Positions 15,195-56,539 of a DNA stretch of 64,000 nt are shown here, in pieces. The translations under genes were made by a program, and so were the position numbers. The DNA is from Candidatus Omnitrophota bacterium (lineage in GTDB: Bacteria; Omnitrophota; Gorgyraeia; JAZDFF01), in contig JAZDFF010000015.1 of assembly GCA_043808095.1 (NCBI GenBank), positions 2,015 through 66,014 of the forward strand, read 5' to 3'. The notes beneath the pieces are model-generated. The model made no database searches, was not told where the DNA came from, and was given only the letters and a program-made list of their open reading frames with translations. Position 1 is the first letter of the stretch, and every line of letters begins with the position of its first letter.

Positions 15195-17024
15195 TCAATT
15201 GTTTTCTTTATGGACCTTATCCTCATTTGAGGCGGTATTTAGCCTGGCCCCAGAAGCAGCGGTCGCAGATTCTATATAAAGATTGGGGTAGTCAAAAAGA
15301 TCAACTGGGCGGCCTTTTTCCAATTTACTTCCAGAAGGGCTATAAAGGATATTTAAAAAGCGCGGAAAACCGCTTTCAACATCAACTACTTCAGCAATCT
15401 CCTGGTTATTGAGCTTGACCAGACTTCCTATAGGATAAACAGAAATTTTTTCCACTAAGGCCTTTACTATATTGGGATCAAATAATCTAACTGTCTCATT
15501 TTTAATCACCTTCATTGCCTCATAAGGGCTAACCGCTTCTTTCCAAGGCCGAAGATGGGTCATCTCCTCAAAGGCGTCGCACACAGAAACAATTTTTACC
15601 GAATCCTGTAATTGGTCTGCCTTAAGCCCTTCTGGATAACCGCTGCCGTCCAGGCGCTCATGATGGGAAAAAGCAATACTCCTTACTATTTCAGGAAGAA
15701 ATTTTGCCTGCTCCAAAATTTGCTTTGAATAAACGGGATGCTTCTTAAGTTCTTCATGTTCGTGCTGGAGTAATATAGCGGACTTTAAAATAATGCCTTT
15801 AAATCTAACAAACCCGATATCATGCAGGAACGTACCCCTTCCTAAATCAGTGAGTTCCTGAAGATCAAACCCCAGCTTTATTCCAACTATAAGGGAAAGT
15901 ATAGTCACATTTAATATATGGCAATATAAATACGCCTGTTCGTTATCCTTGTTGGCCAATTTTATTAAATTGCGATCGTCTTTTTTTAGCGCCTCGATTA
16001 ATTGCTCGATAAAAAGATCAACGGCCTTATAATCCAATAACTCATCTTTTTCTGCGCGATTAAATATGTTTTCTGCCAAAACAAGGCCATTGTGATAAAA
16101 CTGCTCAGCCTCCTTTTCATTTCCTTGCGCCTTAAGAGGTTGTTTTGCTATCTCCTCCTGCCTGGGGGTAGATATCTTTTTATCTTGGCCGTGCCTGGTA
16201 ATTTCAACGCCTAAAGTCGAGGTCTGGGCCTGGATAATGCCAACATCGATTATCGTGGCTTTGTGAGTGAATCCTGTCAGGAGGCTTAACTCACAAATAC
16301 GATTTATGCGCCGAGGAATCCCGCCGCTAGATTCATAAATAACAGAGACAGCCTCGGGTGTAAAAATAGGCTCTTTTCTTCCAGCAACAGCCAAGCGGTG
16401 ATCAATGTAATTTTTTGTCTCATCATAATTTAAGGCATCGAGATGGCTTTTTACGGCAATCCTCTGTTCAAATTGTTTTATGCCATCGATCTTTTGTCTT
16501 AAATCGGATTGACCAACCAATATCAACGTTAGCAGGAATTTATCCATAAGTTGAAAATTTAAAAGCATGCGTAACTGTTCAAAAATCTTAGGATCATCTA
16601 TGATATGGGCCTCATCAATAATTACAATGGTATTTTTACCATCATCATGGTTGTTGTATAAAATATTCTTGATGCTCTCAAGGGCCAGGGATTCCGCAAA
16701 AGAGGATGCCCCGGACTTATGAATCAGGTCTTTATCGCCAAGGCTCATTCCAATATTAACTAAATTTTCTGCAGAGGTTGAGCGGGGATGGGTAATAAAG
16801 GCAACCCTGAATTTCTCGGGGTTCAATTCCTTTAAAAGGGCATTGGCAATAACCGTCTTACCGCAACCAAATATCCCGGTAAGCATGGCCGCGCCCAACA
16901 TCTCCTGCGCGCAATAGGTCAATTTTAATAAGGCATCCTTGTGCTGGGGAGAGTAATAAAGAAACTTGGGATCCGGGCTGTTACGGAAAGGTTTCTCGGT
17001 TAGGCCCCAATATGCTTCATACAT
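15195..17024 (-). CDS. ExeA/GspA-like AAA ATPase (PEP-CTERM/EPS-locus type) fused to a C-terminal HD-GYP c-di-GMP phosphodiesterase domain
   Basis: 609 aa. The N-terminus MYEAYWGLTEKPF...GIFGCGKTV (Walker A) matches the three shorter paralogs in the window. The C-terminus carries FLHDIGF ... HHERLDGSGYPEGL ... VCDAFEEMTHLRPWK, i.e. the HD and GYP motifs. Confidence 0.8.
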   Translation of the reverse strand: MYEAYWGLTEKPFRNSPDPKFLYYSPQHKDALLKLTYCAQEMLGAAMLTGIFGCGKTVIANALLKELNPEKFRVAFITHPRSTSAENLVNIGMSLGDKDLIHKSGASSFAESLALESIKNILYNNHDDGKNTIVIIDEAHIIDDPKIFEQLRMLLNFQLMDKFLLTLILVGQSDLRQKIDGIKQFEQRIAVKSHLDALNYDETKNYIDHRLAVAGRKEPIFTPEAVSVIYESSGGIPRRINRICELSLLTGFTHKATIIDVGIIQAQTSTLGVEITRHGQDKKISTPRQEEIAKQPLKAQGNEKEAEQFYHNGLVLAENIFNRAEKDELLDYKAVDLFIEQLIEALKKDDRNLIKLANKDNEQAYLYCHILNVTILSLIVGIKLGFDLQELTDLGRGTFLHDIGFVRFKGIILKSAILLQHEHEELKKHPVYSKQILEQAKFLPEIVRSIAFSHHERLDGSGYPEGLKADQLQDSVKIVSVCDAFEEMTHLRPWKEAVSPYEAMKVIKNETVRLFDPNIVKALVEKISVYPIGSLVKLNNQEIAEVVDVESGFPRFLNILYSPSGSKLEKGRPVDLFDYPNLYIESATAASGARLNTASNEDKVHKENN

Positions 17025-17240
17025 TTGTAAATTCCTTTATCCAACTAATTTTTAGTATCGGATGCATACGGATTTTAGCGCCTGCCTGCCGGCAGGCAGG
17101 GATTCGGGCGGATAAATTCTTATCCGCGACATCCGTAACCATCCGTTTGAATCCGTGATAAAACATTTGAGTTATTAACTGGTCTGATGTATTTTCATAA
17201 GGTTGTTCGGTTAACCCCCAATATGCTTCATACATATTTA
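17025..17240. repeat. ~215-bp leader repeat (copy A): RBS + palindrome cctgcctgccggcaggcagg (17081..17100) + duplicated first ~20 codons of the ATPase gene (MYEAYWGLTEQPYENTSDQ)
   Basis: Near-identical to 19958..20172. The fragment ATG sits 2 nt after the Wzc stop codon. Confidence 0.7.
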
Positions 17241-19133
17241 TTTTTTGCCCTCTTTTTCTTTGCCATAATAGCGGTATTGATAATAGTAATAATGAGAATG
17301 GACCATCTCGGACTGCGGAGTAATACAATTTAAGACAACGCCTTTAACCTGGGCACCGGTAGATTCTAATTGTACCTTTGACCTTAGTAATGCACTCCTT
17401 GGAGTCCTGCCCACATGATAAACCAATATCACCATATCCGCCTTTTGCCCGATAATGGATGCATCAGTAACCGATAGAACAGGAGGAGAATCAAATAAGA
17501 TAATATCATAATTTGTCTTTAGTTCTTCAATTAAGTTATTCATTTGATTTGAGCTCAATAAAGTCGGCGGATGACCGTGTAATTGACCGGCTGTTAAGAT
17601 ATGTAATTTATTCAGGCCAGGAACTTTTAACGCCTTATCCCATTCCACAGAGCCCATAAGGATATCGGTAAAATTATTTACAGACTCGTTAAATTTTGCC
17701 TTTCCGCTTAAGATGTCGGTTAGGCCGGATCCGACTTTTAAACCAAAAAGATTATGTAAAATAGGCCGTCTTAAATCAGCATCTATGAGGATCACCCTCT
17801 TGCCTCTTTGGGCGATAGCCATGGCAAGATTAGCGACAGTCAGAGATTTTCCTTCTCGCGGAGCTGTCGAGGTAATAAGTATTGATTTTGCATTTTCTTT
17901 ATTTTGAAAAGTTGACCAGACATTAGTCTCTAAAATATTGTAGGCCTCGGCAAGGGTAGATTCTCTCGAAGTATTCATTAGCAATTTGTCCTTCATCTCT
18001 TTAACCTCTTGCGAATAGCTGATACGGCCATGGGGCCAAAACATTACCCGCGGCCTCTTAATATGCTCCAAAAAGGGGATTATTCCCAGTACAGGCAATT
18101 TTATAATATTTTCCACGTCCTCAATAGTGCCGATAGAGGTATCCAAGTTCTCAACTACGAAGGCAAGGATAAAACCAAGCATTAATCCCATTAACGAGCC
18201 TGCAGTAAGATTCAGGCGTTTGTTTGGACTGATAGGATGCTTGGGTTCAGTGGCCTGGCTTACCAGCGTAACATCTGAAGCCTTTTCTGCCTCAGCAATT
18301 CTGGCAGCTTCAAACTTTTCTCGCAGCATCCGGTAGGTCTGCTCACTTATCTGGGCATCTCGCTTCAGGCGGGCATATTCCAGTTCACTGGCGGGAAGAG
18401 TCTTGGTCTGTTCTTCTAACTGGCTAATCTCTTCTTTCAGGCGAATTATCTGAGGATGTTTCTCAGTAGCTTTGGTAATGAGTTCGCTAATCTGGCCTTT
18501 TAATTCGGCAATTCTTTTTTCAAGTTCGACGGCCACTCCTGTAACAGCCTCTTTTTCTTTAAAGACCTTTAACCTTTCTTCTGCCTGATTTAATTCCTTC
18601 TCTACTGCGGCGAGTCTTTCTTGAATGAACTGACGGGTTTCGCTTAACTCTTTGCGTTTTTGGTTTAAATTTTCCTCCATATAGACCTGGATAGTCATAT
18701 TGGCAATACGGGTTATCAGGCGAGGGTCGCTGCCCGTTACAGATATCCGGATAATATTGGTGTCTTTCATCTTATCGGCAGAAACACTCCTCTGAATATC
18801 TCCAATAATTGTCTCTTTATCCTTATCAGGCGTCTTTTCGCCAATCAAGCCGAGTTTTTTAGCCACATCTTCAGCCATCTTACGGCCTTCAATAACCTTT
18901 ATTTCAGTGTCTAAGGGGTCACCCCGTGTCCAGGAAACCCTTTCTAAAATAGTGCTAATAACTGTCTTTCGTTGCTCATACCTTACAGCTGCGGAAGTCT
19001 GAAATACAGTTGGCTGCGTCTTCGTATAAAACGCCGCTAATAAAAACGAGATAAGAAAAGCAGAGATAATAACGACCTTTCTTTTACGCAATATCCTTAG
19101 ATAATCCTGAAAATTTAATTCGTATTGGGGCAT
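17238..19133 (-). CDS. Polysaccharide co-polymerase / BY-kinase (Wzc-like chain-length determinant with C-terminal tyrosine autokinase)
   Basis: 631 aa. N-terminal Wzz domain with a coiled coil, P-loop ITSTAPREGKSLTVANLA, a DxD motif and a C-terminal tyrosine cluster HSHYYYYQYRYYG. Confidence 0.8.
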   Translation of the reverse strand: MPQYELNFQDYLRILRKRKVVIISAFLISFLLAAFYTKTQPTVFQTSAAVRYEQRKTVISTILERVSWTRGDPLDTEIKVIEGRKMAEDVAKKLGLIGEKTPDKDKETIIGDIQRSVSADKMKDTNIIRISVTGSDPRLITRIANMTIQVYMEENLNQKRKELSETRQFIQERLAAVEKELNQAEERLKVFKEKEAVTGVAVELEKRIAELKGQISELITKATEKHPQIIRLKEEISQLEEQTKTLPASELEYARLKRDAQISEQTYRMLREKFEAARIAEAEKASDVTLVSQATEPKHPISPNKRLNLTAGSLMGLMLGFILAFVVENLDTSIGTIEDVENIIKLPVLGIIPFLEHIKRPRVMFWPHGRISYSQEVKEMKDKLLMNTSRESTLAEAYNILETNVWSTFQNKENAKSILITSTAPREGKSLTVANLAMAIAQRGKRVILIDADLRRPILHNLFGLKVGSGLTDILSGKAKFNESVNNFTDILMGSVEWDKALKVPGLNKLHILTAGQLHGHPPTLLSSNQMNNLIEELKTNYDIILFDSPPVLSVTDASIIGQKADMVILVYHVGRTPRSALLRSKVQLESTGAQVKGVVLNCITPQSEMVHSHYYYYQYRYYGKEKEGKK

Positions 19134-19141: not shown

Positions 19142-19957
19142 TTAGGCCTCTAAATCTGCAGCTGCCTCTTCAATAATAGGAGAATCGATTAGCGCCAGCT
19201 TCCTGCCAAATCCAGTAAGTAAAGCTAAATCACAGATATTGTTTATCCTGCGAGGTATTCCGCCTGATTTTTCATATATTGTATTAAGCGCTGAATCATT
19301 AAATAAAGGGGCGTGTCTTCCGGTAATCAATATACGGTGTAATATGTATTTGACTGTATCTTCGCGATTCAACTTATCTAAATAACAACGGATAGCGATC
19401 CTCTGGGCTAAGGGCTTATTGGCCTCAACAATCTCTTTTAATTCCGGTTGACCCAAAAGTAAAAGGGTAAGCAAAAACTTATCCTCCAGCTGGAAATTTA
19501 AAAGTAATCTCAGCGCTTCCCATACTTGTTCGTCACGGATAATATGCGCTTCATCAACAATAACTACCGTCCGCCTGCCGTCCTTGGCGTTATTGACCAA
19601 TATATTATTTAATGTATCTACTACTACGTTCGCCAGGACTTCAGTCTTTTTTGTAGGCAGGTCCTTTGCCCCAAGACCAGCAGCTATAGCCATCAGAAGT
19701 TCTATATAATCAAATTGGGGGTTAGCCACAAATGCAATCCTGTATACGTCCCTGCCCAGTTCTTTTAATAAGGTCCTGCCTAAAAGGGTCTTGCCGCAAC
19801 CAAAAACCCCGGTCATAATCGCCGACCCCTTTTGTTCTCTTACCGCATAAAGTAAACGCGATAGCCCTTCTTCATGTTGCTGCGAATGATACAAGAACCT
19901 GGGATCAGGCGTATTCTCAAAAGGTTTTTCTGTTAATCCCCAATACGATTCGTACAT
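19142..19957 (-). CDS. ExeA/GspA-like AAA ATPase (EPS-locus secretion ATPase family)
   Basis: 271 aa. MYESYWGLTEKPF... Walker A GVFGCGKT and Walker B VVIVDEAH. Confidence 0.75.
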   Translation of the reverse strand: MYESYWGLTEKPFENTPDPRFLYHSQQHEEGLSRLLYAVREQKGSAIMTGVFGCGKTLLGRTLLKELGRDVYRIAFVANPQFDYIELLMAIAAGLGAKDLPTKKTEVLANVVVDTLNNILVNNAKDGRRTVVIVDEAHIIRDEQVWEALRLLLNFQLEDKFLLTLLLLGQPELKEIVEANKPLAQRIAIRCYLDKLNREDTVKYILHRILITGRHAPLFNDSALNTIYEKSGGIPRRINNICDLALLTGFGRKLALIDSPIIEEAAADLEA

Positions 19958-20232: not shown

Positions 20233-21087
20233 CTAATTGTTTAGAGAGAATAAAACATTGGTGGTCTTTTCCAGTTTAGTAATATCAATTCTTTTATTTG
20301 AATTATCCAATTCAAATGCAGCATAGTTAAATTTCTTCATGTATTCTGATAATTGGCTTAATTGATACCCAAGCAGGGGATAAGCAGTTGGAGCAATTTC
20401 ACAAATTATCGCTGGCAAGTTATCACAACATTCAAAATAGTTACTAAGACCTTTTAATACAGGAAACTCGAAACCCTCAGTGTCAATTTTTATCAATGTA
20501 ATGTTATCTAACGCTTTTTCTTTTATATAACTATCTAGCCTGTGAATAGGCACCTCCTTAATTTCCCTTATTGTATCATTAGACATAAAACCTGGAACAA
20601 TTGTATTCCAACCAATATTTTGAAGATTTGTAACAGCTATTTTTTCTATACCCTCCCTTTCGCCTAAAGCGCACTGGTTTACAATAAAGTTATATCCTGG
20701 ATTCAAGAAGGTAACATCTCTAAGTTTTGAAAAATATTCCTGAACAGGTTCAAAGCTATGCACATGACCAGACTTCCCAACAAGCCCCAAAGCAACCGTA
20801 GAAAGATAGCCGATATTTGCACCGACATCTATAAACGTATCCCCCTTCTTCAATATTTTATTCATAGCTTCGACAATCTCTATTTCATAAATTCCCAAAT
20901 ACATATTTTTAACAGCTGAATCGTAATTAAAATCAAATCTGAATACACTCCCACTTTTCAAAGCTTTATTAAAAGATGTTTTTCGAAAAATAAATAAAGA
21001 TCTTACTTTAGCATGGAAGCGTAAAAAGAATTCTTTGGGGTTACTTACTAGCATACAAACAATCCTTTGTAATCGATAAACATTCAT
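20233..21087 (-). CDS. FkbM-family SAM-dependent methyltransferase
   Basis: 284 aa. FIDVGANIGYLS motif of the FkbM methyltransferase domain. Confidence 0.7.
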   Translation of the reverse strand: MNVYRLQRIVCMLVSNPKEFFLRFHAKVRSLFIFRKTSFNKALKSGSVFRFDFNYDSAVKNMYLGIYEIEIVEAMNKILKKGDTFIDVGANIGYLSTVALGLVGKSGHVHSFEPVQEYFSKLRDVTFLNPGYNFIVNQCALGEREGIEKIAVTNLQNIGWNTIVPGFMSNDTIREIKEVPIHRLDSYIKEKALDNITLIKIDTEGFEFPVLKGLSNYFECCDNLPAIICEIAPTAYPLLGYQLSQLSEYMKKFNYAAFELDNSNKRIDITKLEKTTNVLFSLNN

Positions 21088-21138: not shown

Positions 21139-22206
21139 TTAGTGTCTATTCGTGCCTCTATCTTCTATATCCCAAACGCTTTTTCTACGCTTTCCGATAA
21201 CCATTAAGACCGAGATAACCGCAAAAACTAGGCCCGCCTGGATAAGAAGCATTATTGCATCAAATCCAGGATCTTGCCAGAGCACAACTGCGCTTAAACC
21301 AAGTATCAAGGAAATGGAATAGATAAATAATACCGCTCCCCTAAAGTGCAACCCGAGCTCTACCAGGCGATGATGGAAGTGATCAAGCGCCGCGTACTCA
21401 AACCATTCTATAATATTCTTGATTTTTTTGGTATATACCCGCGCAATGGTAGTAAAAGTCATATCAAAAATCGGTACCCCCAAAATCAAAATGGGGACAG
21501 TTATGGCCACTACATTATCCTGGGCCCAGTTGCCCATTATAGCTATGCAGGCAAGGATAAAACCTAAGAAAGTACTGCCGCTATTTCCTAAGAAAATCTT
21601 CGCCGGGTGAAAATTATACCTTAATAACCCGAGACAACCGCCAGCTAAGGCAAGACAGATGGCCGCTAATTGTAATTGGCTGGTCAGATAACAAACGACA
21701 AAAAAACAAATACTGGTAATAACGGCAAGGCCGGTAGCCAAACCATCCAGACCATCCAGGCAATTCAAGGCATTGGTAATACCAATAATCCATATAATAG
21801 TCAAGATCCATTCACCCGATAGCCCCAGCCAGTTATTAGGGAGAAAAGTCAATACAATACCGAATTTAATAACCAAAATAGAGGCCAATAGCTGAATCAA
21901 TAACCTTAAAGTAGCTGATAACCCCTTTTTGTCGTCGATTAAACCAGTTATGAGAATAATAAGGCTACCAAGGAGTAACCCTTTTGCCGGTAACCTGAAA
22001 TCTCTGTCTTTAATCAATAATATCACACTTAAAAAGAAGGCAATCGATATAACCAAGCCACCTAAAATAGGCATGGGTCGCTTATGGATGCTGCGTTCCT
22101 TGGTTGGATAATCTAAGAAATTAAACCAGCCGGCAACCCTTATGAAGAGAGGGGTGGCAAGATACGATACTAAAAATGAAAAAAGAAATATTTTAAAAGA
22201 TGTCAT
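21139..22206 (-). CDS. Polyprenyl-phosphate N-acetylhexosamine-1-phosphate transferase (WecA/MraY family, priming enzyme)
   Basis: 355 aa, ~10 TM. Has GLIDDKKGL (DDxxG) and NALNCLDGLDGLA motifs. Confidence 0.8.
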   Translation of the reverse strand: MTSFKIFLFSFLVSYLATPLFIRVAGWFNFLDYPTKERSIHKRPMPILGGLVISIAFFLSVILLIKDRDFRLPAKGLLLGSLIILITGLIDDKKGLSATLRLLIQLLASILVIKFGIVLTFLPNNWLGLSGEWILTIIWIIGITNALNCLDGLDGLATGLAVITSICFFVVCYLTSQLQLAAICLALAGGCLGLLRYNFHPAKIFLGNSGSTFLGFILACIAIMGNWAQDNVVAITVPILILGVPIFDMTFTTIARVYTKKIKNIIEWFEYAALDHFHHRLVELGLHFRGAVLFIYSISLILGLSAVVLWQDPGFDAIMLLIQAGLVFAVISVLMVIGKRRKSVWDIEDRGTNRH

Positions 22207-22817
22207 ATTTGTAACATAAATCTCAAACTCTTGAAGCCTTCGGCATACTTGACTCTTCCCTGAAACCCTCTAAAATTTGCGCAAGAGGTGGCACTCTCTA
22301 TGATGCTTAAGCCAGGCACGCGCGTTTTATCTACTTGTGAATGATGGATCTTCAAAAGCTCCAATTTTTCTTCTAAAACATCCCCAATATCTGCAAATAC
22401 GTCTGGCTGAAAATCTTGTGTTGTCGGGACCTCATAAAATAAAACATTTTTAATATAGCGCGATGCTGAGATTGCTGCCTGGGCAAGTGCACGATGGTCC
22501 TGGTGGATATCATTAGAATAATTAAATAAAATCAAGTCTGGGTTTGTTTGGTTCATCACACCTTCTATTATTTGGATTAGGTCTCTACTTACAGTAATTT
22601 TGGTGTCTGGGAAACCTCCCCAGAATAGTCTCTTGACCTTTAAAAATCCGCAAGAAGCCTCCTGCTCTTTTCTTCTAAATTGTGCATCTGAACCCACTTC
22701 TCCTTCAGTCAAAACCAGCATATAAATGCTACAATTTTTCTTTGCATATTTTAGTAAAGTACCGCCGCAGCCGAATTCTATATCATCCGGATGCGCACCA
22801 ATGGCTAATATGTTCAT
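22203..22817 (-). CDS. PIG-L/LmbE-family N-acetylglucosaminyl deacetylase
   Basis: 204 aa. AIGAHPDDIEFGCGGTL (HPDDxE zinc-binding motif). Confidence 0.75.
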   Translation of the reverse strand: MNILAIGAHPDDIEFGCGGTLLKYAKKNCSIYMLVLTEGEVGSDAQFRRKEQEASCGFLKVKRLFWGGFPDTKITVSRDLIQIIEGVMNQTNPDLILFNYSNDIHQDHRALAQAAISASRYIKNVLFYEVPTTQDFQPDVFADIGDVLEEKLELLKIHHSQVDKTRVPGLSIIESATSCANFRGFQGRVKYAEGFKSLRFMLQI

Positions 22818-22981
22818 TTTTTCTCCTTATTTAGGGCTTTACAAAATTCGTTTCGCCCTTGATTACGGAGATTAGAAATTGATTCCAGAGATTAAAGCTC
22901 CACGAGAAATCGCTGTAATCATTCTAAAATCACTGTAATCAACAGCCCTCAGGTTAATTTCGTGAAGGGCTGATTATAATA

Positions 22982-24022
22982 TTAACATATCTTTTTAATT
23001 ACCTCAATAACTCTTTTTTGTTCATTGGGTTTAAGGGACGGATATATCGGTATAGAGACTGCCGAATTCCAGGCAGCCTCTGCTCGGGGGTAGCTGCGTT
23101 GGCCTAAATATTTATGCAAAAGTTTGTATACAGGTCTTTCGCAGATAACATTGTTTCTTTTTAGAAAATTTAATGCCTTCCTCAGGTCTTTTTTAATCCT
23201 AATTACATAACGGAAATAGATATGTCCTTTCGTAGATTTCGGTGAATCGAAATCACAATTAGAAAACGCCTTATTATACCTTCTAGCTAAATATCTTCTT
23301 TGGTTAATAAATTTATCTAATTTTTTAAGTTGGCTCATACCGAGTGCCGCCTGAATATCAGTCATCTTATAGTTGAACCTTAGCTTGAATGATTTTTTCT
23401 TATCGTAATCCCTGAGATCTCGGACTTTGTCTAATAAGCTTAAGTTGTTAGAAAATACCATCCCGCCTTCTCCTGTTGTAAGTAATTTGGTGGTATAGAA
23501 TGATGTCATGCTTAGATCCCCAAAGGTCCCAACCTTTCTACCAGAATATTCAGCTCCAATTGCCTGGGCACAATCTTCAATTACAGGTATTCCTAACTTT
23601 CTAAAAGGCAATATATCTACGGGTGAACCAAACATATGGCTGACGATTATCGCTTTAGTTTTTCTAGTCAGCTTCTTCTTGGTATCAATAAATGAAATAT
23701 TAAAATCGTCGGCGTCAATATCTGCAAATTTAGGTCTGGAACCTACATACAAAATAGCGTTTAAGACAGCGCTACATTGATAGGTAGACAAAATCACCTC
23801 ATCTTTTTCCTTTATACCAAGTGCGAGAAAGCAAAGATGTAAAGCGGATGTTCCAGAGTTAACTACCAACGCACCTTTAACATCCAGATATTTAGCAAAA
23901 CGCTTCTCAAACTCAAATACAAATTTCCCTTGACTTATATGTCCAGATTCTAAAACTGCTAAAACGCAATCAATATCATCTTTAGAAAGCGTAGGCCTAG
24001 AATGAGGAATCATTCTCTGCAT
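22982..24022 (-). CDS. DegT/DnrJ/EryC1/StrS-family sugar aminotransferase (PLP)
   Basis: 346 aa. Family-typical layout with SFYTTKLLTTGEGG (active-site Lys region). Confidence 0.8.
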   Translation of the reverse strand: MQRMIPHSRPTLSKDDIDCVLAVLESGHISQGKFVFEFEKRFAKYLDVKGALVVNSGTSALHLCFLALGIKEKDEVILSTYQCSAVLNAILYVGSRPKFADIDADDFNISFIDTKKKLTRKTKAIIVSHMFGSPVDILPFRKLGIPVIEDCAQAIGAEYSGRKVGTFGDLSMTSFYTTKLLTTGEGGMVFSNNLSLLDKVRDLRDYDKKKSFKLRFNYKMTDIQAALGMSQLKKLDKFINQRRYLARRYNKAFSNCDFDSPKSTKGHIYFRYVIRIKKDLRKALNFLKRNNVICERPVYKLLHKYLGQRSYPRAEAAWNSAVSIPIYPSLKPNEQKRVIEVIKKIC

Positions 24023-27390: not shown

Positions 27391-27392
27391 AT

Positions 27393-30333: not shown

Positions 30334-30356
30334 TCTTTAAGTTAATAATTTATTAA

Positions 30357-33354: not shown

Positions 33355-33363
33355 TGTTTGGTA

Positions 33364-48836: not shown

Positions 48837-50102
48837 TTATTCCAAAAACTTCAATAGTCTGGATTCCGGATAATATTTTTTGATTAAACTTATTAATCCG
48901 TAGGCCACGAATATACTCAAAAATGGCTCCAAAGGCACTCGATATCGTGTGCCACTCGAACCATCGGACCCAAAAAAAATGAGACTAACAATAGTAAAAT
49001 AGATGGCTAATAGATGGATAATCCAAGTTTGCCTTGAATGTTTCAAAGAAAGAAAAAATCCTAAGACCATAAACGGAAAAAATAATATTCCATAAAGAAA
49101 AGTTATTATTGTATTCCTTAATGTGCTTGAATACCCCCATTGCCAGAATTTCAGGAATTTAAAATAGAGCAGTATTAAAAATTGTTTTGGATTTTCTTTG
49201 ATGAATTCCAAGGCCAACTTAGTATATCTTCGGTCTAAATCTATTTCAGATAAATTAGTTTTTATCCTGATACTATCAGGCATATACCATGTCCCACGCT
49301 TATCTACTTTCTTGAAGACCTCAGGATTATTACCCCCCCACAGGTTACGTCCTAAACCAATGTAAACAGGGATAAACTTGTGAAATACTCTGTAATTTCT
49401 ATAGGCCCAAGGGGTAATCACTAATGACATAAAAGAAATAATTAATAAAGTCATCCTAAGGACATCTTTTTTTGTGCGTAAATTTAACCAAAACCAAAGA
49501 AATATAAAAAATGGAAAGGCCAGTGCAATGGGTCTGGTAAGATTAGCCACACCCAGCCAAAGTCCGGCTCCCAAACACTGCTTCCAAGACGGCTTATCAA
49601 TAAATTTAACGACCCAGAGGACCGCTAAGAGAAGCAACAAGGTAAACAACGTCTCAGTTAACAAATATCCTGTAAGCAAGCAAAGATAGGGATGACCTGC
49701 CATAATTAATGCTGATAATAATCCTACGGCCTTACTAAATAGCCTGGCCCCAATAAGGTATCCTACAAGACAACTTAGAGAACCAATAAATATTTGTATC
49801 AGTTGAGCAATCCAATGCCTATAACCAAAAACCTTATATATTGCCGCTAAAAATAAAGGATAAAAAGGTCCGCGGTAGGCAAGGGCTGTCCCATCGATGG
49901 TAAAACCCTTTCCTTCGATTAAACTGTAGGCAATCTTATCATCTCCGCTGGCGTCGGCAGTATAAATCCCATCCCATCCCACAACTAAATATATGGTGGC
50001 TAATCTTGCCAGAAGAGCAACTACAAATATTATGCCCAATATACATCTAATTTTACTCTCAAAAAAATGATAAAAAAATTTATGTAGTTTCACGGCGGTC
50101 AA
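48837..50102 (-). CDS. GT-C membrane glycosyltransferase (ArnT/PMT, GT39/GT83-like), putative
   Basis: 421 aa polytopic protein. A DG-containing first periplasmic loop follows the first TM helix, as in the ArnT/PMT family. Confidence 0.5.
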   Translation of the reverse strand: MTAVKLHKFFYHFFESKIRCILGIIFVVALLARLATIYLVVGWDGIYTADASGDDKIAYSLIEGKGFTIDGTALAYRGPFYPLFLAAIYKVFGYRHWIAQLIQIFIGSLSCLVGYLIGARLFSKAVGLLSALIMAGHPYLCLLTGYLLTETLFTLLLLLAVLWVVKFIDKPSWKQCLGAGLWLGVANLTRPIALAFPFFIFLWFWLNLRTKKDVLRMTLLIISFMSLVITPWAYRNYRVFHKFIPVYIGLGRNLWGGNNPEVFKKVDKRGTWYMPDSIRIKTNLSEIDLDRRYTKLALEFIKENPKQFLILLYFKFLKFWQWGYSSTLRNTIITFLYGILFFPFMVLGFFLSLKHSRQTWIIHLLAIYFTIVSLIFFGSDGSSGTRYRVPLEPFLSIFVAYGLISLIKKYYPESRLLKFLE

Positions 50103-50173: not shown

Positions 50174-51481
50174 TTATGCAAGGGCTTGCCTCTCTGTCCC
50201 CTCTTCAGCGGAAGAAGAGAGCTGTGGTATCATCACTATGATAGCAGTCAAAAACCAGAAAGGCTCCATAATCCGAACAACAATAAATGTCTGAGAGGAA
50301 AAGGAATGGAAAAATAGGCCAATAAAACCAGCCAAAAATCCTAAAGCCAATCCCTGGCTCCAATCATCTCTTATATTCCTGAGGGTCCATAAACCATTTC
50401 GAAAAATATTTATCAAAAGCCAGATAAATACCCAAAGCCCGATGATTCCTGTCTCTGCGAGTACGTAAGGCAATTGTGTATCCAAGACCGGCACACCGCC
50501 TACTCCGAAACCTAAAATTGGGCTTTCTTTTAACACCTTAAATATAAATTTCCAACTTTCAACTCGATGGGCTGCAGATTCATCTAATACGATACGTGCT
50601 CCTAATGCTTCATATTCCACCCCCGGAATAAATGTTGACTTTATCCGCTCAATTACGCTATTTGGTAAAAGAAATGGAGCGAGCATTACAAATAATAATA
50701 ATATAATAATGAGCGGCCATCTCATTCTATTGGTTAAAATTATAAAAGCCAAATACATAAAAATAAATCCCAAGTAACTACCTCTGGATAGGGTGAACAA
50801 AAAAGAGGGGAAGATAAAAAGACAAAGCCAACCTGCAAAAAACTTCCAGATGCCGGATTTGCTATATAAAAAAACCCCTAAGCTGACCGCAAATAGTAAT
50901 AGTAAATATCCGCCTAAGGTGTTCGGCTCACCACCGATTTCCTTTTCAAAGGGCGCACTAAGTCTTCCCTCTATTCCCAATTCGCCGATCTTAGTTGAAG
51001 TATAGACACAGACGAGAAAACATGTAATCAATAAAAAAGCTATAAATCTTTTTGCTTGTTTCATATTATCAAGATTGTTAATTACAAGAAAATAAATCAT
51101 AAAGTACTCAATATATTTCAAGACATGAAATAAACCAGAAAAAGGCGTAACCGCCCCCTTTATAATACCAAAGAGCGTAGAAAGAATACTTATAGATATA
51201 AAGACCGTGATTGGTAAATTCAAAGGAGATTTCTTTAATAGACCAAATTCCTTATTAACAGCCATCTTTACTAGCCAAGTAAAGAAAACTACCAAAACTA
51301 AAATATCATCTATTCTTACTACTACTGCCCTTTCCCCAAGCTGAGCAACTGATAACTCCGGAGAAAATAACATTGAGAAGATTAATACAATAATCCCAAA
51401 GTCAGTTTTTACTAATGTAATGAGACAAACAAACAGTCCGCTTAGTAAAATAATTGGTAAAAACTCATGCAAACCAATCAT
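50174..51481 (-). CDS. O-antigen ligase / Wzy-like polymerase family membrane protein
   Basis: 435 aa, ~10-12 TM, with the Wzy_C-type loop motif FTLSRGSYLGF. Confidence 0.7.
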   Translation of the reverse strand: MIGLHEFLPIILLSGLFVCLITLVKTDFGIIVLIFSMLFSPELSVAQLGERAVVVRIDDILVLVVFFTWLVKMAVNKEFGLLKKSPLNLPITVFISISILSTLFGIIKGAVTPFSGLFHVLKYIEYFMIYFLVINNLDNMKQAKRFIAFLLITCFLVCVYTSTKIGELGIEGRLSAPFEKEIGGEPNTLGGYLLLLFAVSLGVFLYSKSGIWKFFAGWLCLFIFPSFLFTLSRGSYLGFIFMYLAFIILTNRMRWPLIIILLLFVMLAPFLLPNSVIERIKSTFIPGVEYEALGARIVLDESAAHRVESWKFIFKVLKESPILGFGVGGVPVLDTQLPYVLAETGIIGLWVFIWLLINIFRNGLWTLRNIRDDWSQGLALGFLAGFIGLFFHSFSSQTFIVVRIMEPFWFLTAIIVMIPQLSSSAEEGTERQALA

Positions 51482-51788: not shown

Positions 51789-53726
51789 TTAAGTATCGGT
51801 GAGTCTCTTACCCGAATCTTCAGAGTCTTCACTGGAATAATAGTATTTATATTTATAATGATAATATGGATAATAGCTGCTTTGGATTTCTGTCTCGGGC
51901 TGGGTATGATTTAAGACCACGCCTAACATCTTTGCACCCGCCGACTCTAGTTGTACCTTTGTGCGTAAAAGTGCTGCCCTGGCAGTACGGCCAACCTCAT
52001 AGACTAAAACCACCCCGTCTAACTTTGGCGAAAGAATTACTGCATCGCTGATAGATAGGGCAGGAGGAGAGTCAAAAAGCACCAGATCAAAATCGCTTTT
52101 TAGTTCCCTAATTATATCGGACATTACAGTAGAACCTAATAGTTCGGCCGGGTTAAGAGGAATATGGCCCGAACTTAAAATCTTCAGATTATCCAATCCG
52201 GGCGTCTTTAGCGCCTCGCTAATGTCAACCTTGCCAACTAAGATATCAGATAGGCCCCTTAGCGCCTCCTTTAATTTTAATGTTCCCGAGATGACTTCCG
52301 ATAAACCGGGATCGCGCTCTACTCCAAATACCCTTGCTATCGTAGGTCTCCTTAAGTCCGTATCTACGATAACTACCTTTGTGCCCATTTGAGCAAAGAT
52401 AAGACCTAGACTCACCAAGACAGTGGTTTTTCCTTCCCTAGGACCGGTGGAGGAAAAAAGTATTGTCTTTTGACTAGGGTTTATCTTAAGATTAGTTCTT
52501 AAGATACGGTAGGCCTCAGAAACCGGAAGATGAGGATGGTATTGAACAGTTAAACAAGTGGCAGAGAAATCTAATGTCTGGCTTGTTTCTTTTTTCCTAA
52601 ATCTTAAACTAAAAAAATGCCCTTTCTGTCTCTTTTTTAAATTCTCCCTCTCTTGTAATCTTACGGAAGGAATAATTCCCAATACAGGCAAGTTTATAAG
52701 TTTTTCTACATCTTCGATTGTGCCGATAGAGGTATCTAAACTTTCTGTCACAAAGGTAAAAATTAGTCCAAGCATAATTCCCATCAAAGAACCCACAATT
52801 AAATTTAGGCCTTTATTTGGCTTAATAGGATAAGATGGTTCGATAGCCTGATTTATAGGCGTAACATCCGGGGTTTTTTCAGCCTCAGCAATACGGGAGG
52901 CTTCAAATTTTTCTCTGAGCATCCTGTATGTCTGTTCATTTATTTCCTTATCTCGATTTAGACGTGCATATTCAAGTTCACTGGCAGGCAAAGTCTTGTT
53001 CTGTTCTTCTAATTGACTAATCTCTTCTCTAAGCCGGATTATCTGAGGATGTTTTTCGGTAGCCTTGGTAAGGAGTTCGCTGGCCCGGCCTTTTAATTCT
53101 ACCAATCTTCTTTCGAGTTCAATGGCTACTCCTGTAACGGACTCTCTCTCTTTAAAGGCCTTTAATTTCTCTTCTGCCTGATTCAGCTCCTTCTCTACTG
53201 CAGCAAGCCTCTCTTGGACAAATTGGCGGGTCTCTGTTGCCTCTCTGCGTTTCTGGTTCAAATTTTCATCTATATAGACCTGCACAGCCATATTGGCAAT
53301 ACGGGTTATCTTTTTCGGGTCACTACCAGTTACAGATATATTAATTATATTGGTATCCTTTAGCTTCTCAGCAAAGATGCTTCCCTGAATATCGCTAATA
53401 ACTGCCTTTTTTTCATTATCAGACATTTTCTCATCAACAAAACCCAGCCTTTTAGCCGCCTTTTCTGCAACTTTACGGCTCTGAATGACATTTATCTCGG
53501 TATCTAAAGGGTTTCCCGGTCGAAAGTACATCTCCTCCACAAGGGCACCAATTACGGTCTTTTTTTGTTCATACCTTACGGTTGCAGAGGTCTGAAATAC
53601 GACGGGCTGCATCTTTGTATAAAATACTGTCAATACAAGCGAAATAAGAAAAGCGGAGCCAATGAGAATCCTTCTTTTTCGAAATATCCTAAGATAATCC
53701 TGGAAATTTAATTCGTATTGGGGCAT
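51789..53726 (-). CDS. Polysaccharide co-polymerase / BY-kinase (Wzc-like), paralog of 17238..19133
   Basis: 645 aa. Identical N-terminus MPQYELNFQDYLRI, P-loop FSSTGPREGKTTVL and C-terminal Tyr cluster YYPYYHYKYKYYY. Confidence 0.8.
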   Translation of the reverse strand: MPQYELNFQDYLRIFRKRRILIGSAFLISLVLTVFYTKMQPVVFQTSATVRYEQKKTVIGALVEEMYFRPGNPLDTEINVIQSRKVAEKAAKRLGFVDEKMSDNEKKAVISDIQGSIFAEKLKDTNIINISVTGSDPKKITRIANMAVQVYIDENLNQKRREATETRQFVQERLAAVEKELNQAEEKLKAFKERESVTGVAIELERRLVELKGRASELLTKATEKHPQIIRLREEISQLEEQNKTLPASELEYARLNRDKEINEQTYRMLREKFEASRIAEAEKTPDVTPINQAIEPSYPIKPNKGLNLIVGSLMGIMLGLIFTFVTESLDTSIGTIEDVEKLINLPVLGIIPSVRLQERENLKKRQKGHFFSLRFRKKETSQTLDFSATCLTVQYHPHLPVSEAYRILRTNLKINPSQKTILFSSTGPREGKTTVLVSLGLIFAQMGTKVVIVDTDLRRPTIARVFGVERDPGLSEVISGTLKLKEALRGLSDILVGKVDISEALKTPGLDNLKILSSGHIPLNPAELLGSTVMSDIIRELKSDFDLVLFDSPPALSISDAVILSPKLDGVVLVYEVGRTARAALLRTKVQLESAGAKMLGVVLNHTQPETEIQSSYYPYYHYKYKYYYSSEDSEDSGKRLTDT

Positions 53727-53738
53727 ATTGGAATGGTA

Positions 53739-54773
53739 TTAAAATCCCAAAGTCTGAAGCTGGGTCGCAACAGAGGAGGCTTTGTATATAGGATCGATTA
53801 GTTGTGTAAGGAAGTAATTTAGATTAGCAATAAATTTTTTAGGCACATAGATTATGTCTTCGGGCTGGGTTAAAAGGTCACTACTCACCTGGCCTTTATC
53901 AATGGCCCTGGTTAGATTAACACGTCGTATCTCTGGATTAAATGGGGCCCCTCGGATAATAATTACGCTATTTAAAACTGCATGCTCAGAAAAACCGCCG
54001 GCTAAGGCAATCGCCTCTAAGATATTGGCTATACCTGTTGGCTTGTATACACCGGGATTTTTTACTTCACCCAAGACAATGATCTTTTTGCCTCCTATCT
54101 GTTTTAATGATATGGAAACTTTGGGGGATGAGAGCAAATCTTTTAATTTTTCTGTTAAAGTACCGGAAAGTTCATTAAGGCTGAGGCCCTCGGCTTGAAC
54201 ATCGCCTAATAGGGGAAGGCTTATTTTACCATCGGGACGCACCATTAATTCTTTGGATAAATCCTCAACTTTTTCAAATCCCACCCTTCTTTTACCAAAT
54301 TCCTGTACCATTACCGAAACCTCAGGCGACTTAATAAACTCCTTAAGTTTTTCTGTTAAAATCCCGTCTAATTCGGTTAAGGTAAGGCCCTCTGCATAGA
54401 TATCATCTACGAGAGGAAAAGAAATCTTGCCGTCTGGCCGGACAATCACAATCTTGGCTAAATCTGGCCACTGCCAGACAGATATATCTAAGACATCTCC
54501 GGTTGAAATAGTATATTCATTTTCAGGCCCCTTTTCTTTTGCCTTCTCCAATCGACCAAACCCCTGCCAGACACCAACCTCTAAAATATCCTCCGGGCCA
54601 ATTTTATATTCGAAAGGTTTAGGCTGTTCTTCCTGAGACTGAGACAATTCTGTTTCTATCTTCTTAATCTCGGATTCAATCTCGGACTCTAAGACGGGAT
54701 TAGCAGTAACGCAGCCTAAAAATGATAGGGCAAAAATTATTAAAAGACAGGATTTATATTTATTTTTATACAT
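53739..54773 (-). CDS. Polysaccharide export outer-membrane lipoprotein (Wza/Poly_export + SLBB family)
   Basis: 344 aa. Lipobox LSFLGC, Poly_export motif YKIGPEDILEVGVWQ and two SLBB-like repeats (VRPDGKISFPL / VRPDGKISLPL). Confidence 0.75.
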   Translation of the reverse strand: MYKNKYKSCLLIIFALSFLGCVTANPVLESEIESEIKKIETELSQSQEEQPKPFEYKIGPEDILEVGVWQGFGRLEKAKEKGPENEYTISTGDVLDISVWQWPDLAKIVIVRPDGKISFPLVDDIYAEGLTLTELDGILTEKLKEFIKSPEVSVMVQEFGKRRVGFEKVEDLSKELMVRPDGKISLPLLGDVQAEGLSLNELSGTLTEKLKDLLSSPKVSISLKQIGGKKIIVLGEVKNPGVYKPTGIANILEAIALAGGFSEHAVLNSVIIIRGAPFNPEIRRVNLTRAIDKGQVSSDLLTQPEDIIYVPKKFIANLNYFLTQLIDPIYKASSVATQLQTLGF

Positions 54774-54857: not shown

Positions 54858-55670
54858 TTAGGTAAAGCTTTCTATCTCATCTTTTATGATTATTTCATCA
54901 ACAACAGAGGCCTTTTCTATAAATCCGGTTAAAAGACCAAGATCGCAGATACGGTTAATCCTGCGCGGTATACCTCCAGAGAAATCAAAAATAGTTTTTA
55001 ATGCTTCTTCTGTAAAAATTGGAGCGTCTCTTCTACTTACTTTAAGTCGATGAAGAACGTAGTTCTTTGTCTCTTCTTGGTTTAAGGCGTTTAAATAACA
55101 TTTTATCGCTATCCTTTGTTCAAAAGGTTTATTGTCTTCGATCTTTTGCCTCAATTCTGGCTGGCCGAATAACAACAGGGTTAAAAGAAATCTATTCTGT
55201 TGGTGAAAGTTTAAAAGAAGCCTCAATTCATTAAAAACCTGGTCATCCTGAATGATATGCGCCTCATCAACAATAATCACGGTATCTTTACCTTCCCGGT
55301 AATTTGCCATGAGGATATTTTCTAAAACCTCGTGTAGATAATCCGTAGAGATTTCTGTTTTTTTAGTGGGCAGTTCTATCTCTTTTAAGTTCCTTACAAT
55401 TGCCCTAAGTAGATCGACATACTCCAATTGGGGATTGGTAATGGATGCTACTTGGTAATGCTCTTTCTTGAGTTCATCAAAGATAGCCTCGGCCAAAACA
55501 GTCTTTCCGCAACCAAAAATTCCGGTTAGCATAGCTGCCCCCACTCGTTCCTTAATAGCATAAAGCATGCGCGATAAGGCCTCTTGGTGCTGATTAGAAT
55601 AGTAAAGAAAACGCGGGTCAGGGGTATTTTGAAATGGCTTCTGATTTAGGCCCCAATATTCTTCGTACAT
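54858..55670 (-). CDS. ExeA/GspA-like AAA ATPase (EPS-locus type)
   Basis: 270 aa. MYEEYWGLNQKPFQNTPDPRFLYY, GIFGCGKT and IIVDEAH. Confidence 0.75.
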   Translation of the reverse strand: MYEEYWGLNQKPFQNTPDPRFLYYSNQHQEALSRMLYAIKERVGAAMLTGIFGCGKTVLAEAIFDELKKEHYQVASITNPQLEYVDLLRAIVRNLKEIELPTKKTEISTDYLHEVLENILMANYREGKDTVIIVDEAHIIQDDQVFNELRLLLNFHQQNRFLLTLLLFGQPELRQKIEDNKPFEQRIAIKCYLNALNQEETKNYVLHRLKVSRRDAPIFTEEALKTIFDFSGGIPRRINRICDLGLLTGFIEKASVVDEIIIKDEIESFT

Positions 55671-55744
55671 ATTATTTTAACTTACTCACTTACTCATTAT
55701 AATAAAGATTAACGAAATTGTCGAATAAAACAATCATTTAGATT

Positions 55745-56539
55745 CTATTCAAAACCTTTTATCTCTTCTTGAACAATATCATCGTCTATAAGGTCAAACT
55801 TTTTGATAAATCCTGCCAAGAGGCACATATCGCATAGACGGTTAATTCTACGTGGTATACCGCCAGAATAATTGTAGATTGAACGAAGGGCTCTTTCAGA
55901 AAAAATCGCGGCTGTGCGATTGGCAACCTGCAAGCGGTGAACAATATATTTTATGGAATCTTCCGGGGTTAAGCCGTCTAAATGGGCCTTTACATTAATC
56001 CTCTGCTCTAATTGTATATTCTCTTCAATTTTCTGCTTTAATTCTGGCTGGCCCAAAAGCAATAATGTTAAAAGAAATCTGTCTTGCAGTTGAAAATTTA
56101 AAAGCAGCCTTATTTCTTCAAAGACATTCTCGTCATTTATGGCGTGTGCCTCATCAATAATAACTACGGTTTGTTTACCGTTTCGCATATTGTTTAATAA
56201 CGCGTCATTAAGAATGTTCAAAACATCTGCTTTTCTTAGGGGGGCAGGATTGCCTAATTGATAAAGAATCATCCTTAAAAGCTCGATATCATCGAGCTTG
56301 GGATTAGCTATAAAGGCAGTTTTATACTGCTCGCTGCTGAGTTCCTTTAATACTGCTTGAGCAAGCATAGTCTTACCACAGCCAAATACACCCGTAAGCA
56401 TAGCTGCGCCCATCTTCTCTCTTACGGTATAGATAAGACGCATTAATGATTCCTCGTGTTGACTTGAACGATAAAGAAAACGCGGGTCAGGGGTATTTTG
56501 AAATGGCTTCTGATTTAGGCCCCAATATGCTTCGTACAT
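55745..56539 (-). CDS. ExeA/GspA-like AAA ATPase (EPS-locus type)
   Basis: 264 aa. MYEAYWGLNQKPFQNTPDPRFLY, GVFGCGKT and VIIDEAH. Confidence 0.75.
   Translation of the reverse strand: MYEAYWGLNQKPFQNTPDPRFLYRSSQHEESLMRLIYTVREKMGAAMLTGVFGCGKTMLAQAVLKELSSEQYKTAFIANPKLDDIELLRMILYQLGNPAPLRKADVLNILNDALLNNMRNGKQTVVIIDEAHAINDENVFEEIRLLLNFQLQDRFLLTLLLLGQPELKQKIEENIQLEQRINVKAHLDGLTPEDSIKYIVHRLQVANRTAAIFSERALRSIYNYSGGIPRRINRLCDMCLLAGFIKKFDLIDDDIVQEEIKGFE

Follow-up and report, generated by a model that had tools for sequence, protein, structure and literature searches.

The interval from 15195 to 56539 in the 64-kb window analyzed here (the window being the whole 64,000-nucleotide stretch of contig JAZDFF010000015.1, to which all positions refer) is a surface-polysaccharide gene cluster of about 41 kb from Candidatus Omnitrophota. 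We propose that it is best explained as a mosaic Wzx/Wzy-dependent surface-glycan locus built in three layers, namely, an export and control shell, a strain-variable block, and a conserved cassette that recurs across phyla and would make a modified amino sugar by the steps outlined below; taking the architecture and the cassette chemistry together, we give this explanation a probability of about 45%. A first-pass annotation of the same DNA had recognized the polysaccharide locus but overlooked its most informative feature, this widely conserved tailoring cassette with WbqC, a ligase candidate resembling aminoacyl-tRNA synthetases (aaRS).

The open reading frame (ORF) listing supplied the gene set, and Pfam and NCBIfam profile scans were run on every product of the locus. 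The locus is an uninterrupted series of 35 genes, all on the minus strand (as are all locus genes positioned below), with a coding share of 95.6% and a widest intergenic gap of 307 bp; the earlier description of a single-strand run therefore holds, although its count of about 30 genes was too low. The domain inventory given in the first-pass annotation was likewise correct overall when all 35 products were scanned. Two genes, encoding products of 513 and 515 amino acids (aa), had no confident family in the Pfam and NCBIfam scans.

The conserved cassette and its core enzymes

All ORFs of 84 related loci (designated by L numbers) were compared with the window proteins. Positions 21139 to 35354 of the window hold a collinear cassette of ten genes in the order GT4_b, MT221, DegT#2, rSAM#1, GT4_a, PHP, WbqC, DegT#1, PIG-L, and WecA-like, in which GT denotes a glycosyltransferase, MT a methyltransferase, and rSAM a radical S-adenosylmethionine (SAM) enzyme. 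Three genes have been inserted into the window copy: those for a 283-aa methyltransferase, a 515-aa membrane protein, and an SGNH-like protein. The collinear cassette was also found in KSB1 (L002), Thermodesulfovibrionia (L005), Nitrospirota (L030), Latescibacterota (L031, L067, and L070), Desulfobacterota-type metagenome-assembled genomes (L020 and L072), Zhuqueibacterota (L076), other lineages, and Omnitrophota (L085-L087 and L092), with the order of PIG-L and DegT#1 differing among the loci that carry it. A reduced form in Scalindua of the Planctomycetota (L001 and L004) comprises MT221, DegT#2, a NodB-type deacetylase, a carbamoyltransferase, rSAM#1, PHP, GT4_a (absent in some loci), and WbqC. 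On a 2.9-Mb Scalinduaceae contig, the cassette, annotated there without the deacetylase and the carbamoyltransferase, is flanked by housekeeping genes, lying between glycolytic genes and topA, and therefore behaves as a self-contained module.

Frequencies were calculated from species-level loci with enough flanking sequence only, and the denominators differ by gene. The gene immediately preceding rSAM#1 is DegT#2 in 34 of 69 such loci, including nearly all members of the clade of the window protein, which shows that the radical SAM-DegT pairing remarked on in the first-pass annotation is not accidental. Within the DegT#2-positive loci, MT221 was present in 27/31, WbqC in 23/27, PHP in 21/27, and GT4_a in 19/29; a GT4_b ortholog was found in 14/31.

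The core of the cassette is formed by rSAM#1 (30357..31511; Radical_SAM, 72 bits; SPASM, 59 bits), a twitch-type radical SAM enzyme, and the aminotransferase DegT#2 (31508..32692; PF01041, 233 bits). The start of rSAM#1 and the end of DegT#2 overlap by 4 bp, and the two genes are translationally coupled. The rSAM#1 family consists of proteins of 384 to 387 aa that are 43 to 76% identical to the window protein; it includes 915 database clusters at an E value of ≤1e-10, and relatives are found in no fewer than 534 species genomes of GTDB. The radical-cluster cysteines C53, C57, and C60 are invariant (85/85 rSAM#1 sequences). The C terminus has the arrangement C317-x17-C335-x39-C375-x2-C378, after which the protein ends; therefore, it cannot hold a seven-cysteine, two-cluster SPASM domain. 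Comparison of the family profile with the PDB matched the core to SkfB, BlsE, and CteB, with SkfB the best sequence match, and matched residues 314 to 382 to BtrN only, in its twitch domain (E value, 1e-9). Pairwise alignment placed C317 and C335 opposite two cysteines of that domain, which we take to be the first two auxiliary-cluster ligands of BtrN. BtrN is a radical SAM dehydrogenase that yields a ketone and carries one Cys4 auxiliary cluster (PMC10337720).

Both DegT proteins retain the pyridoxal phosphate lysine, in SFYTTK (DegT#1) and SFNRGK (DegT#2). A role for DegT#2 as a ColD/E1-type dehydratase was considered and rejected, since the lysine is kept and is not a histidine. The alignment of DegT#2 to solved DegT enzymes is almost confined to its N-terminal half (residues ~23 to 200); the C-terminal half is divergent and has a hydrophobic stretch at residues 215 to 233. 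All matches of the three radical SAM enzymes, both DegT proteins, PIG-L, and the WecA-like protein to curated NCBIfam models lay below the cutoff, and equivalog names are therefore not used here.

In the butirosin/2-deoxystreptamine pathway, BtrS, an enzyme of the DegT family, goes on to aminate the ketone derived from BtrN; BtrM and BtrD also have roles in this pathway, the gene set of which includes a GT4 enzyme and a PIG-L/LmbE-type deacetylase, as does the cassette. There are also differences: rSAM#1 has 384 aa, compared to ~250 aa for BtrN; SkfB and BlsE are the nearer matches to its core; the rSAM#1 family as a whole does not keep the fourth auxiliary cysteine; and the window context is a lipid-linked surface glycan rather than an aminocyclitol antibiotic, with no 2-deoxy-scyllo-inosose synthase.

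A second likeness involves the other end of the cassette. WbqC (24010..24708; Pfam, 270 bits) has a predicted HUP or class I aaRS-like fold, and its model (pLDDT, 94.7) is nearest to BshC and class I aaRS. BshC is the proposed counterpart, in bacillithiol synthesis, of MshC of the mycothiol pathway. Based on this fold and the genomic context, we infer that WbqC is a candidate ligase that would form an amide at a sugar amine at the expense of ATP, with ATP use assumed from the fold. MshC, a paralog of cysteinyl-tRNA synthetase (CysRS), adenylates cysteine, which it then joins to a glucosamine conjugate at the amine (PMC2922099). PIG-L (22203..22817; PF02585, 91 bits), a de-N-acetylase of the PIG-L/LmbE family, has intact metal motifs (AHPDD and HQDH), and its best NCBIfam match is BshB1 (98 versus a cutoff of 182.5). 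The combination of GT4_a, PIG-L, and WbqC therefore follows the three-step logic of mycothiol and bacillithiol synthesis (MshA/B/C and BshA/B/C), in the same order: glycosyl transfer by a GT4 enzyme, de-N-acetylation by a PIG-L-family enzyme, and acylation of the amine by a candidate with a BshC or class I aaRS fold. Unlike its counterparts, WbqC, at 232 aa, is a catalytic core alone, lacking the BshC coiled coil and the CysRS anticodon domains, and the window PIG-L remains under the BshB1 cutoff. Because these genes sit with WecA and the Wzx/Wzy machinery, the cassette probably makes a residue of a glycan and not a soluble thiol. By analogy, the cassette resembles the BtrN/BtrS and MshA/B/C logics combined, with no curated threshold of those enzymes reached. 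Our search of the literature on WbqC, on radical SAM with DegT and polysaccharide, and on Omnitrophota glycans, the coverage of which was incomplete, yielded no description of the cassette and no function for WbqC.

The remaining cassette members are GT4_b, the first gene (34206..35354; Pfam); the methyltransferase MT221 (32689..33354; Methyltransf_11, 60 bits); the glycosyltransferase GT4_a (26218..27390; Glycos_transf_1, 158 bits); the PHP-fold protein (24705..26246), which has a C-terminal beta-sandwich, is membrane anchored, and is apparently degenerate in the window; the aminotransferase DegT#1 (22982..24022; PF01041, 300 bits; PseC model, 262 versus a cutoff of 423.5), which overlaps WbqC by 13 bp; and, as the last gene, a polyprenyl-phosphate N-acetylhexosamine (HexNAc)-1-phosphate transferase of the WecA/MraY family (21139..22206; PF00953, 136 bits) with ~9 predicted transmembrane (TM) segments, which lies under the WecA equivalog cutoff (TIGR02380, 109 versus 326).

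Of the inserted genes, that for the 283-aa class I methyltransferase (33364..34215) has an ortholog in just 1 related locus, and that for the 515-aa polytopic membrane protein (28786..30333; ~9 predicted TM segments) has no Pfam or NCBIfam match and no homolog in the 84 related loci; the AT skew flips sign locally around it, at ~28 to 30 kb. The third (27393..28568), with an N-terminal signal or anchor, had been called an SGNH hydrolase; its match is below threshold (Lipase_GDSL_2, 22.6 bits versus a cutoff of 32.9), as is that to LA_2486/2490 (35 bits), and it is better described as a weakly SGNH/GDSL-like protein. A GDSL gene is also present within locus L087.

The proposed pathway and competing explanations

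In the pathway that we propose, the WecA-family enzyme would prime a HexNAc on the polyprenyl-phosphate carrier, and the two GT4 enzymes would extend the lipid-linked HexNAc. PIG-L would remove the N-acetyl group to give a free amine, rSAM#1, as a twitch-type enzyme, would oxidize a sugar hydroxyl to a ketone in a BtrN-like manner, and DegT#2 would convert the ketone made by rSAM#1 to a second amine. WbqC would join an amino acid or another carboxylate to the free sugar amine, and MT221 would methylate the cassette product. The other methyltransferases would decorate the repeat unit, which Wzx, Wzy, Wzc, and Wza would flip, polymerize, and export. Gene content, motifs, predicted folds, and synteny are what was observed; from these we infer every substrate and reaction in the scheme. 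It is a bolder and rather doubtful proposition that the cassette encodes a pathway not described so far, widespread among the sampled lineages (mostly uncultivated and probably anaerobic), in which an N-aminoacylated, methylated diamino sugar would be made without a keto-sugar enzyme of the short-chain dehydrogenase/reductase (SDR) type, by means of a twitch radical SAM dehydrogenase and aminoacylation by WbqC.

Classical nucleoside diphosphate (NDP)-sugar-modifying genes are absent from the locus, as had been stated in the first-pass annotation and as our scans bear out: none of the 35 products matched the Epimerase/SDR, 4,6-dehydratase, UDPG dehydrogenase, Gfo/Idh/MocA, or NTP_transferase families, and there is no hidden SDR-type gene, because no gap is large enough to contain one. 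The same absence is seen around the cassette elsewhere. Across seven related loci with Pfam annotation, the sequence within 10 kb of the radical SAM gene contained no gene of the SDR, Gfo/Idh/MocA, or nucleotidyltransferase families. A scan of 113 neighboring ORFs from 24 cassette-bearing genomes, none of them matching a window protein, gave Glyco_transf_9 and then methyltransferases as the most frequent families, with the NDP-sugar-modifying families outside the 25 most frequent and each accounting for ≤2 of the 113. Since no SDR, Gfo, or nucleotidyltransferase neighbors recur, the cassette travels without conventional keto-sugar enzymes. Glyco_transf_9, the heptosyltransferase family, is the commonest extra neighbor (12/113 ORFs from the 24 genomes) and was seen in loci including L001, L085, L086/L092, and L087; there is no such gene in the window locus. 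This company hints that in some lineages the cassette product may be placed on a structure resembling a lipopolysaccharide core.

Absence from the locus is, however, no proof that radical SAM enzymes replace SDRs, as had been suggested, and the most serious competing explanation, which we regard as possible if not probable, is that the locus is of an ordinary polysaccharide type and takes its keto-sugar and NDP-sugar precursors from conventional enzymes encoded elsewhere, whether by a GnnA-like gene, in the other 23 kb of the contig, or in the rest of the genome; the radical SAM enzymes would then do something else, such as epimerization, C-methylation, or deoxygenation of a formed sugar. Genes for precursors often lie away from glycan loci, both DegT proteins resemble ordinary sugar aminotransferases in PDB searches, and one distant locus with a B12-binding radical SAM gene (L090) has a classical Gfo-DegT pair. 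Furthermore, a candidate dehydrogenase is close at hand. A Gfo/Idh/MocA oxidoreductase gene (9288..10232, plus strand; PF01408, 101 bits), for which UDP-GlcNAc 3-dehydrogenase is the best match, is found 5 kb outside the locus, directly upstream of lpxB (9288-11612, plus strand). No GnnB gene adjoins it, and it is adjacent to neither DegT gene; the genes for GnnA and GnnB need not be linked (PMC5644692). Against this explanation, the match of the GnnA-like protein is below threshold (220 versus 450), and its lpxB neighbor points to lipid A instead, which suggests a GnnA-like step, possibly giving a lipid A that contains GlcN3N, in this bacterium. In addition, many phyla have kept rSAM#1 and DegT#2 next to each other (in the window, their start and stop overlap), the Scalindua module stands alone between housekeeping genes with no dehydrogenase nearby, and in the 24 genomes scanned, the surroundings of the cassette have no recurring SDR or Gfo family.

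An unlikely explanation is that the order of reactions is of the DesI/DesII or AprD4 type, in which the aminotransferase would act before the radical SAM enzyme, which would turn the amino sugar into a deoxy or epimerized sugar by deamination, dehydration, or epimerization. The radical SAM enzymes acting on sugars in secondary metabolism do include the lyase DesII, the diol dehydratase AprD4, the decarboxylase BlsE, and epimerases; BlsE (E value, 6e-16) is among the matches to the rSAM#1 core, DesII is a weak one, and rSAM#2, described below, also weakly matches the DesII model. However, the scores against the DesII and AprD4 models are far under the thresholds, the sole solved match to the auxiliary-cluster domain is the dehydrogenase BtrN, and such an order would still require an upstream keto sugar, none of which visibly comes from the cassette. 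It is very unlikely that the radical SAM/SPASM proteins are peptide or protein maturases, of a ribosomally synthesized and posttranslationally modified peptide (RiPP) or an enzyme cofactor, that merely lie inside a glycan locus: although their top NCBIfam matches are the tungsten-enzyme maturase, SCIFF, PapB, and SkfB families, SkfB is the best PDB sequence match for the rSAM#1 core, a RiPP-like gene set is located upstream (57.5 to 63.9 kb), and PqqD-rSAM-ScmC genes follow the cassette in L092, the family scores are 3- to 6-fold under the cutoffs, no small ORF for a conserved precursor came to notice next to rSAM#1 (no systematic small-ORF search was made), the Pfam annotations of the cassettes include no peptidase or PqqD/RRE partner, the conserved neighbors of rSAM#1 are sugar enzymes in more than 10 phyla, and rSAM#1 ends in a twitch domain for one cluster instead of the seven-cysteine SPASM domain typical of peptide maturases.

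Several observations also weigh against the amino sugar pathway that we favor, in addition to the GnnA-like gene, which could be a source of a 3-keto sugar. First, rSAM#1 is below every curated family threshold, including that of the twitch model NF033640 (64.7 versus 170), and C335 is present in only 43/85 relatives, the others having Tyr/Phe-His. We considered whether the presence of C335 tracks DegT linkage and rejected this, since several DegT-linked members have Tyr/Phe-His. Second, about half of the rSAM#1 relatives have no DegT neighbor within 9 kb. By distance clustering, the DegT-less members form separate clades, the largest of which is in Marinimicrobia; in this clade (L039-L080, e.g., L045, 9207-17885), with no DegT or WbqC neighbor, the rSAM#1 gene is located between genes for a cyclic nucleotide-binding/FHA protein and a response regulator and heads a Wza-Wzc-Wzy locus, and its product has Tyr-His for the second twitch cysteine and, by a one-residue insertion, CxxxC for the terminal CxxC. 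Third, PIG-L (10/25), WecA (9/23), and DegT#1 (8/24) accompany the core in only ~40% of the DegT#2-positive loci. Finally, the PHP protein in the window lacks the metal-binding histidines of its family. Many PHP relatives have the motifs HxH/HxD, TDHD, and AHPE, where the window copy and its closest homolog, P0242, have IGVN, TDQA, and LSVE. The fold of the window copy is kept, with high model confidence, and the altered motifs suggest a pseudoenzyme or a changed activity; it is probably not a working phosphoesterase.

The shell, the variable block, and the surroundings of the locus

The outer layer of the locus has the components of assembly and export. The upstream end begins with two AAA_22 ATPase genes, a (55745..56539; PF13401, 75 bits) and b (54858..55670), and these are followed by a Wza-type outer membrane polysaccharide export (OPX) protein (53739..54773; Poly_export, 145 bits, with SLBB) and Wzc#1 (51789..53726), a PCP-2a polysaccharide copolymerase and bacterial tyrosine (BY) kinase with Wzz, GNVR, and AAA_31 domains (TIGR01007, 166 versus a cutoff of 108) and a Tyr-rich tail. 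The downstream end has AAA_22 ATPase c (19142..19957; Pfam/NCBIfam), Wzc#2 (17238..19133; PCP-2a/BY-kinase), and an AAA_22 ATPase fused to an HD-GYP domain (15195..17024; AAA_22, 56 bits; HD_5, 74 bits; HD at residue 401 and GYP at residue 462). A 103-aa ORF at 17017-17328 was taken to be spurious, as it overlaps Wzc#2 and has no family match. Where the first-pass annotation had listed one Wzc, there are two paralogs (59% identical, both with Tyr-rich tails), and the four TIGR03015-like AAA_22 ATPases, of which ATPase b is 50 to 56% identical to the other three, were missing from its inventory. The locus thus has both a PCP-2a BY-kinase, with TIGR01007 above the cutoff and Tyr-rich tails, and an OPX exporter with Poly_export and SLBB domains. 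Whereas the window has AAA_22 and HD-GYP in one protein, the KSB1 locus L002 (17479-19639) encodes them in separate adjacent genes. In L002, L086/L092, and L087, WecA is likewise followed by an AAA_22 gene. The AAA_22 ATPase looks like a conserved regulatory partner, and together with the HD-GYP domain these ATPases suggest control by cyclic di-GMP.

Three further membrane proteins would belong to assembly. The Wzx flippase (41514..42947; Polysacc_synt, 118 bits) has ~13 predicted TM segments, and the Wzy_C-domain protein (50174..51481; PF04932; ~11 predicted TM segments) is a polymerase or a ligase, as a match of 42 bits does not separate a polymerase from a WaaL-type ligase. The second flippase (47279..48790; PF03023, 272 bits) does belong to the MurJ family, as had been reported; however, because it passes the murJ equivalog cutoff (TIGR01695, 286 versus 235.6), it may be a housekeeping protein, possibly the essential lipid II flippase of peptidoglycan synthesis embedded in a variable glycan locus.

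These components are shared with Wzx/Wzy-dependent capsule, exopolysaccharide (EPS), and O-antigen loci of the group 1 type (Wza-Wzc), which have a primer, glycosyltransferases, Wzx, Wzy_C, a BY-kinase with a Tyr-rich tail, and an OPX protein. The window locus differs in its two Wzc proteins, four AAA_22 ATPases (one fused to HD-GYP), three radical SAM enzymes, and embedded MurJ equivalog and in its lack of an NDP-sugar dehydratase, epimerase, or nucleotidyltransferase. There is also a resemblance to the XrtA/PEP-CTERM EPS loci (EpsI type): models from PEP-CTERM loci are among the best for AAA_22 and Wzc, and one of them, TIGR03027, is passed by Wza (183.1 versus 180). It is the only one that passes; TIGR03015 (192 to 224 versus 324.5, with ATPase a at 224), TIGR03007 (154 to 162 versus 278.9), and TIGR03018 (116 to 132 versus 230.7) are all below the cutoff, and no exosortase (XrtA/EpsH) family match was found among any ORF of ≥100 aa in the 64-kb window. 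Membership in the exosortase-linked EPS loci was rejected on these grounds.

The variable block completes the glycosyltransferase and methyltransferase complement, which for the whole locus amounts to six GT4-type enzymes, one small GT2, and one GT-C (PMT_2) and to five class I methyltransferases and one of the FkbM family. In addition to those in the cassette, the GT4-type enzymes are GT4 c (35357..36481; Pfam), d (37298..38428; Pfam), the GT1/GT4-like e (39342..40430; Glyco_trans_1_4, 53 bits), and f (45263..46423; Glycos_transf_1, 88 bits); the GT-C enzyme (48837..50102; PF13231, 54 bits) is a membrane protein with ~9 predicted TM segments. Class I methyltransferases of 276 aa (36478..37308; Pfam), 284 aa (38452..39306; Methyltransf_23, 73 bits), and 257 aa (46509..47282; Methyltransf_11, 83 bits) are found here, and the FkbM methyltransferase gene (20233..21087; PF05050, 74 bits) lies beyond the other end of the cassette. 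From six methyltransferases, the earlier description of the glycan as heavily methylated is a reasonable prediction.

The other two radical SAM genes are also found in this block. One encodes a B12-binding, class B enzyme (43829..45238; B12-binding PF02310, 85 bits; Radical_SAM, 71 bits), which overlaps the small GT2 of 275 aa (43015..43842; PF00535, 36 bits) by 14 bp; the other encodes rSAM#2, a radical SAM/SPASM-type enzyme (40445..41509; Radical_SAM, 71 bits; SPASM, 34 bits). All three radical SAM cores are real, as had been claimed, with CX3CX2C motifs at residues 53 (rSAM#1), 44 (rSAM#2), and 214 (the B12-binding enzyme) and PF04055 scores of 70.6 to 71.5 against a cutoff of 29.5. The B12-binding enzyme falls in no curated family, with BchE as its best model (230 versus 481) and HpnJ as its third best (152 versus 578), and every NCBIfam match of rSAM#2 is far under its cutoff. 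The pairing of the B12-binding enzyme with a GT2 and the presence of a deacetylase in the locus recall the HpnI/HpnK/HpnJ pathway, which makes the hopanoid cyclitol ether, and the class B sugar C-methylases GenK and GenD1; however, the enzyme is below both the HpnJ and BchE cutoffs, and there are no hopanoid genes.

Of the genes whose conservation had been proposed as a check, rSAM#1 and DegT#2 are conserved together, whereas the B12-binding enzyme and its GT2 partner recur in only one related Omnitrophota locus, L085 (GT2, 41% identical). A metagenome scan gave only four relatives of the B12-binding enzyme, at 26 to 31% identity and in unrelated contexts; the distant locus L090 is the one that holds the classical Gfo-DegT pair. 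No partner gene of rSAM#2 is conserved in the related loci. The C-methyl or keto-sugar role that had been assigned to these two enzymes therefore lacks a supporting link, with no curated family and a conserved GT2 neighbor in one locus only, and C-methylation by the B12-binding enzyme is a guess from the habit of most class B enzymes.

Proteins identical to rSAM#1 and WbqC are recorded from a metagenome-assembled genome of Candidatus Omnitrophota, on an 87.6-kb contig. The flanks of the locus contain the housekeeping genes ptsI, HPr, frr, pyrH, tsf, rpsB, lpxB, and nadE and three tRNA genes (Gly-GCC, Leu-TAG, and Lys-TTT; 3100-3790, minus strand) located between the phosphotransferase system genes and frr. 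The G+C content is 32 to 37% at the locus center (20000-42000), compared to 42 to 45% in the left flank; low central G+C is usual for variable glycan loci. Two PDDEXK_3 genes of the PD-(D/E)XK nuclease superfamily (13502-13924 and 61028-61402, minus strand; 37.5% identical) are found near both ends of the glycan region, and genes similar to this pair are present in some Scalindua loci (L021 and L026). A divergent GT2 gene (56676..57581, plus strand; PF00535, 101 bits) is possibly part of the locus. Directly upstream is a RiPP-like gene set (57556-63917, minus strand) that comprises a class B-like radical SAM core that has no B12 domain (62901-63917), an ORF of 106 aa without a family match (62581-62901), a radical SAM protein that is Cys-rich and SPASM-like (61470-62543), an HlyB/MsbA-like ABC exporter (58852-60600), and an NTP_transf_5 protein (57556-58710). 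In the related locus L092, PqqD-rSAM-ScmC genes come after WecA and AAA_22.

Implications for surface glycans and for the WbqC family

The weight of these findings is mainly in the cross-phylum cassette and the lead provided by the WbqC fold, rather than in how large the locus is or how many genes it has; should the model be wrong, what is left is a variable polysaccharide locus that is large but ordinary. As for structural data, the one related finding that we came across concerns the S-layer O-glycan of the anammox bacterium Kuenenia, which is unusually heavily methylated and has no gene assignment (PMC5088730).

If the model is correct, it would provide testable functions for the 384- to 387-aa radical SAM family, found in at least 534 species genomes, and for WbqC/PF08889, which has more than 7,000 sequence clusters and for which this would be the first function of the family. 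Likewise, rSAM#1 would be the first radical SAM dehydrogenase in surface-glycan synthesis, extending alcohol oxidation by such enzymes beyond the aminoglycoside antibiotics. Finally, Omnitrophota, anammox Planctomycetota, Latescibacterota, KSB1, and related phyla, the envelopes of which are almost unstudied, would carry an aminoacylated, methylated diamino-sugar epitope.

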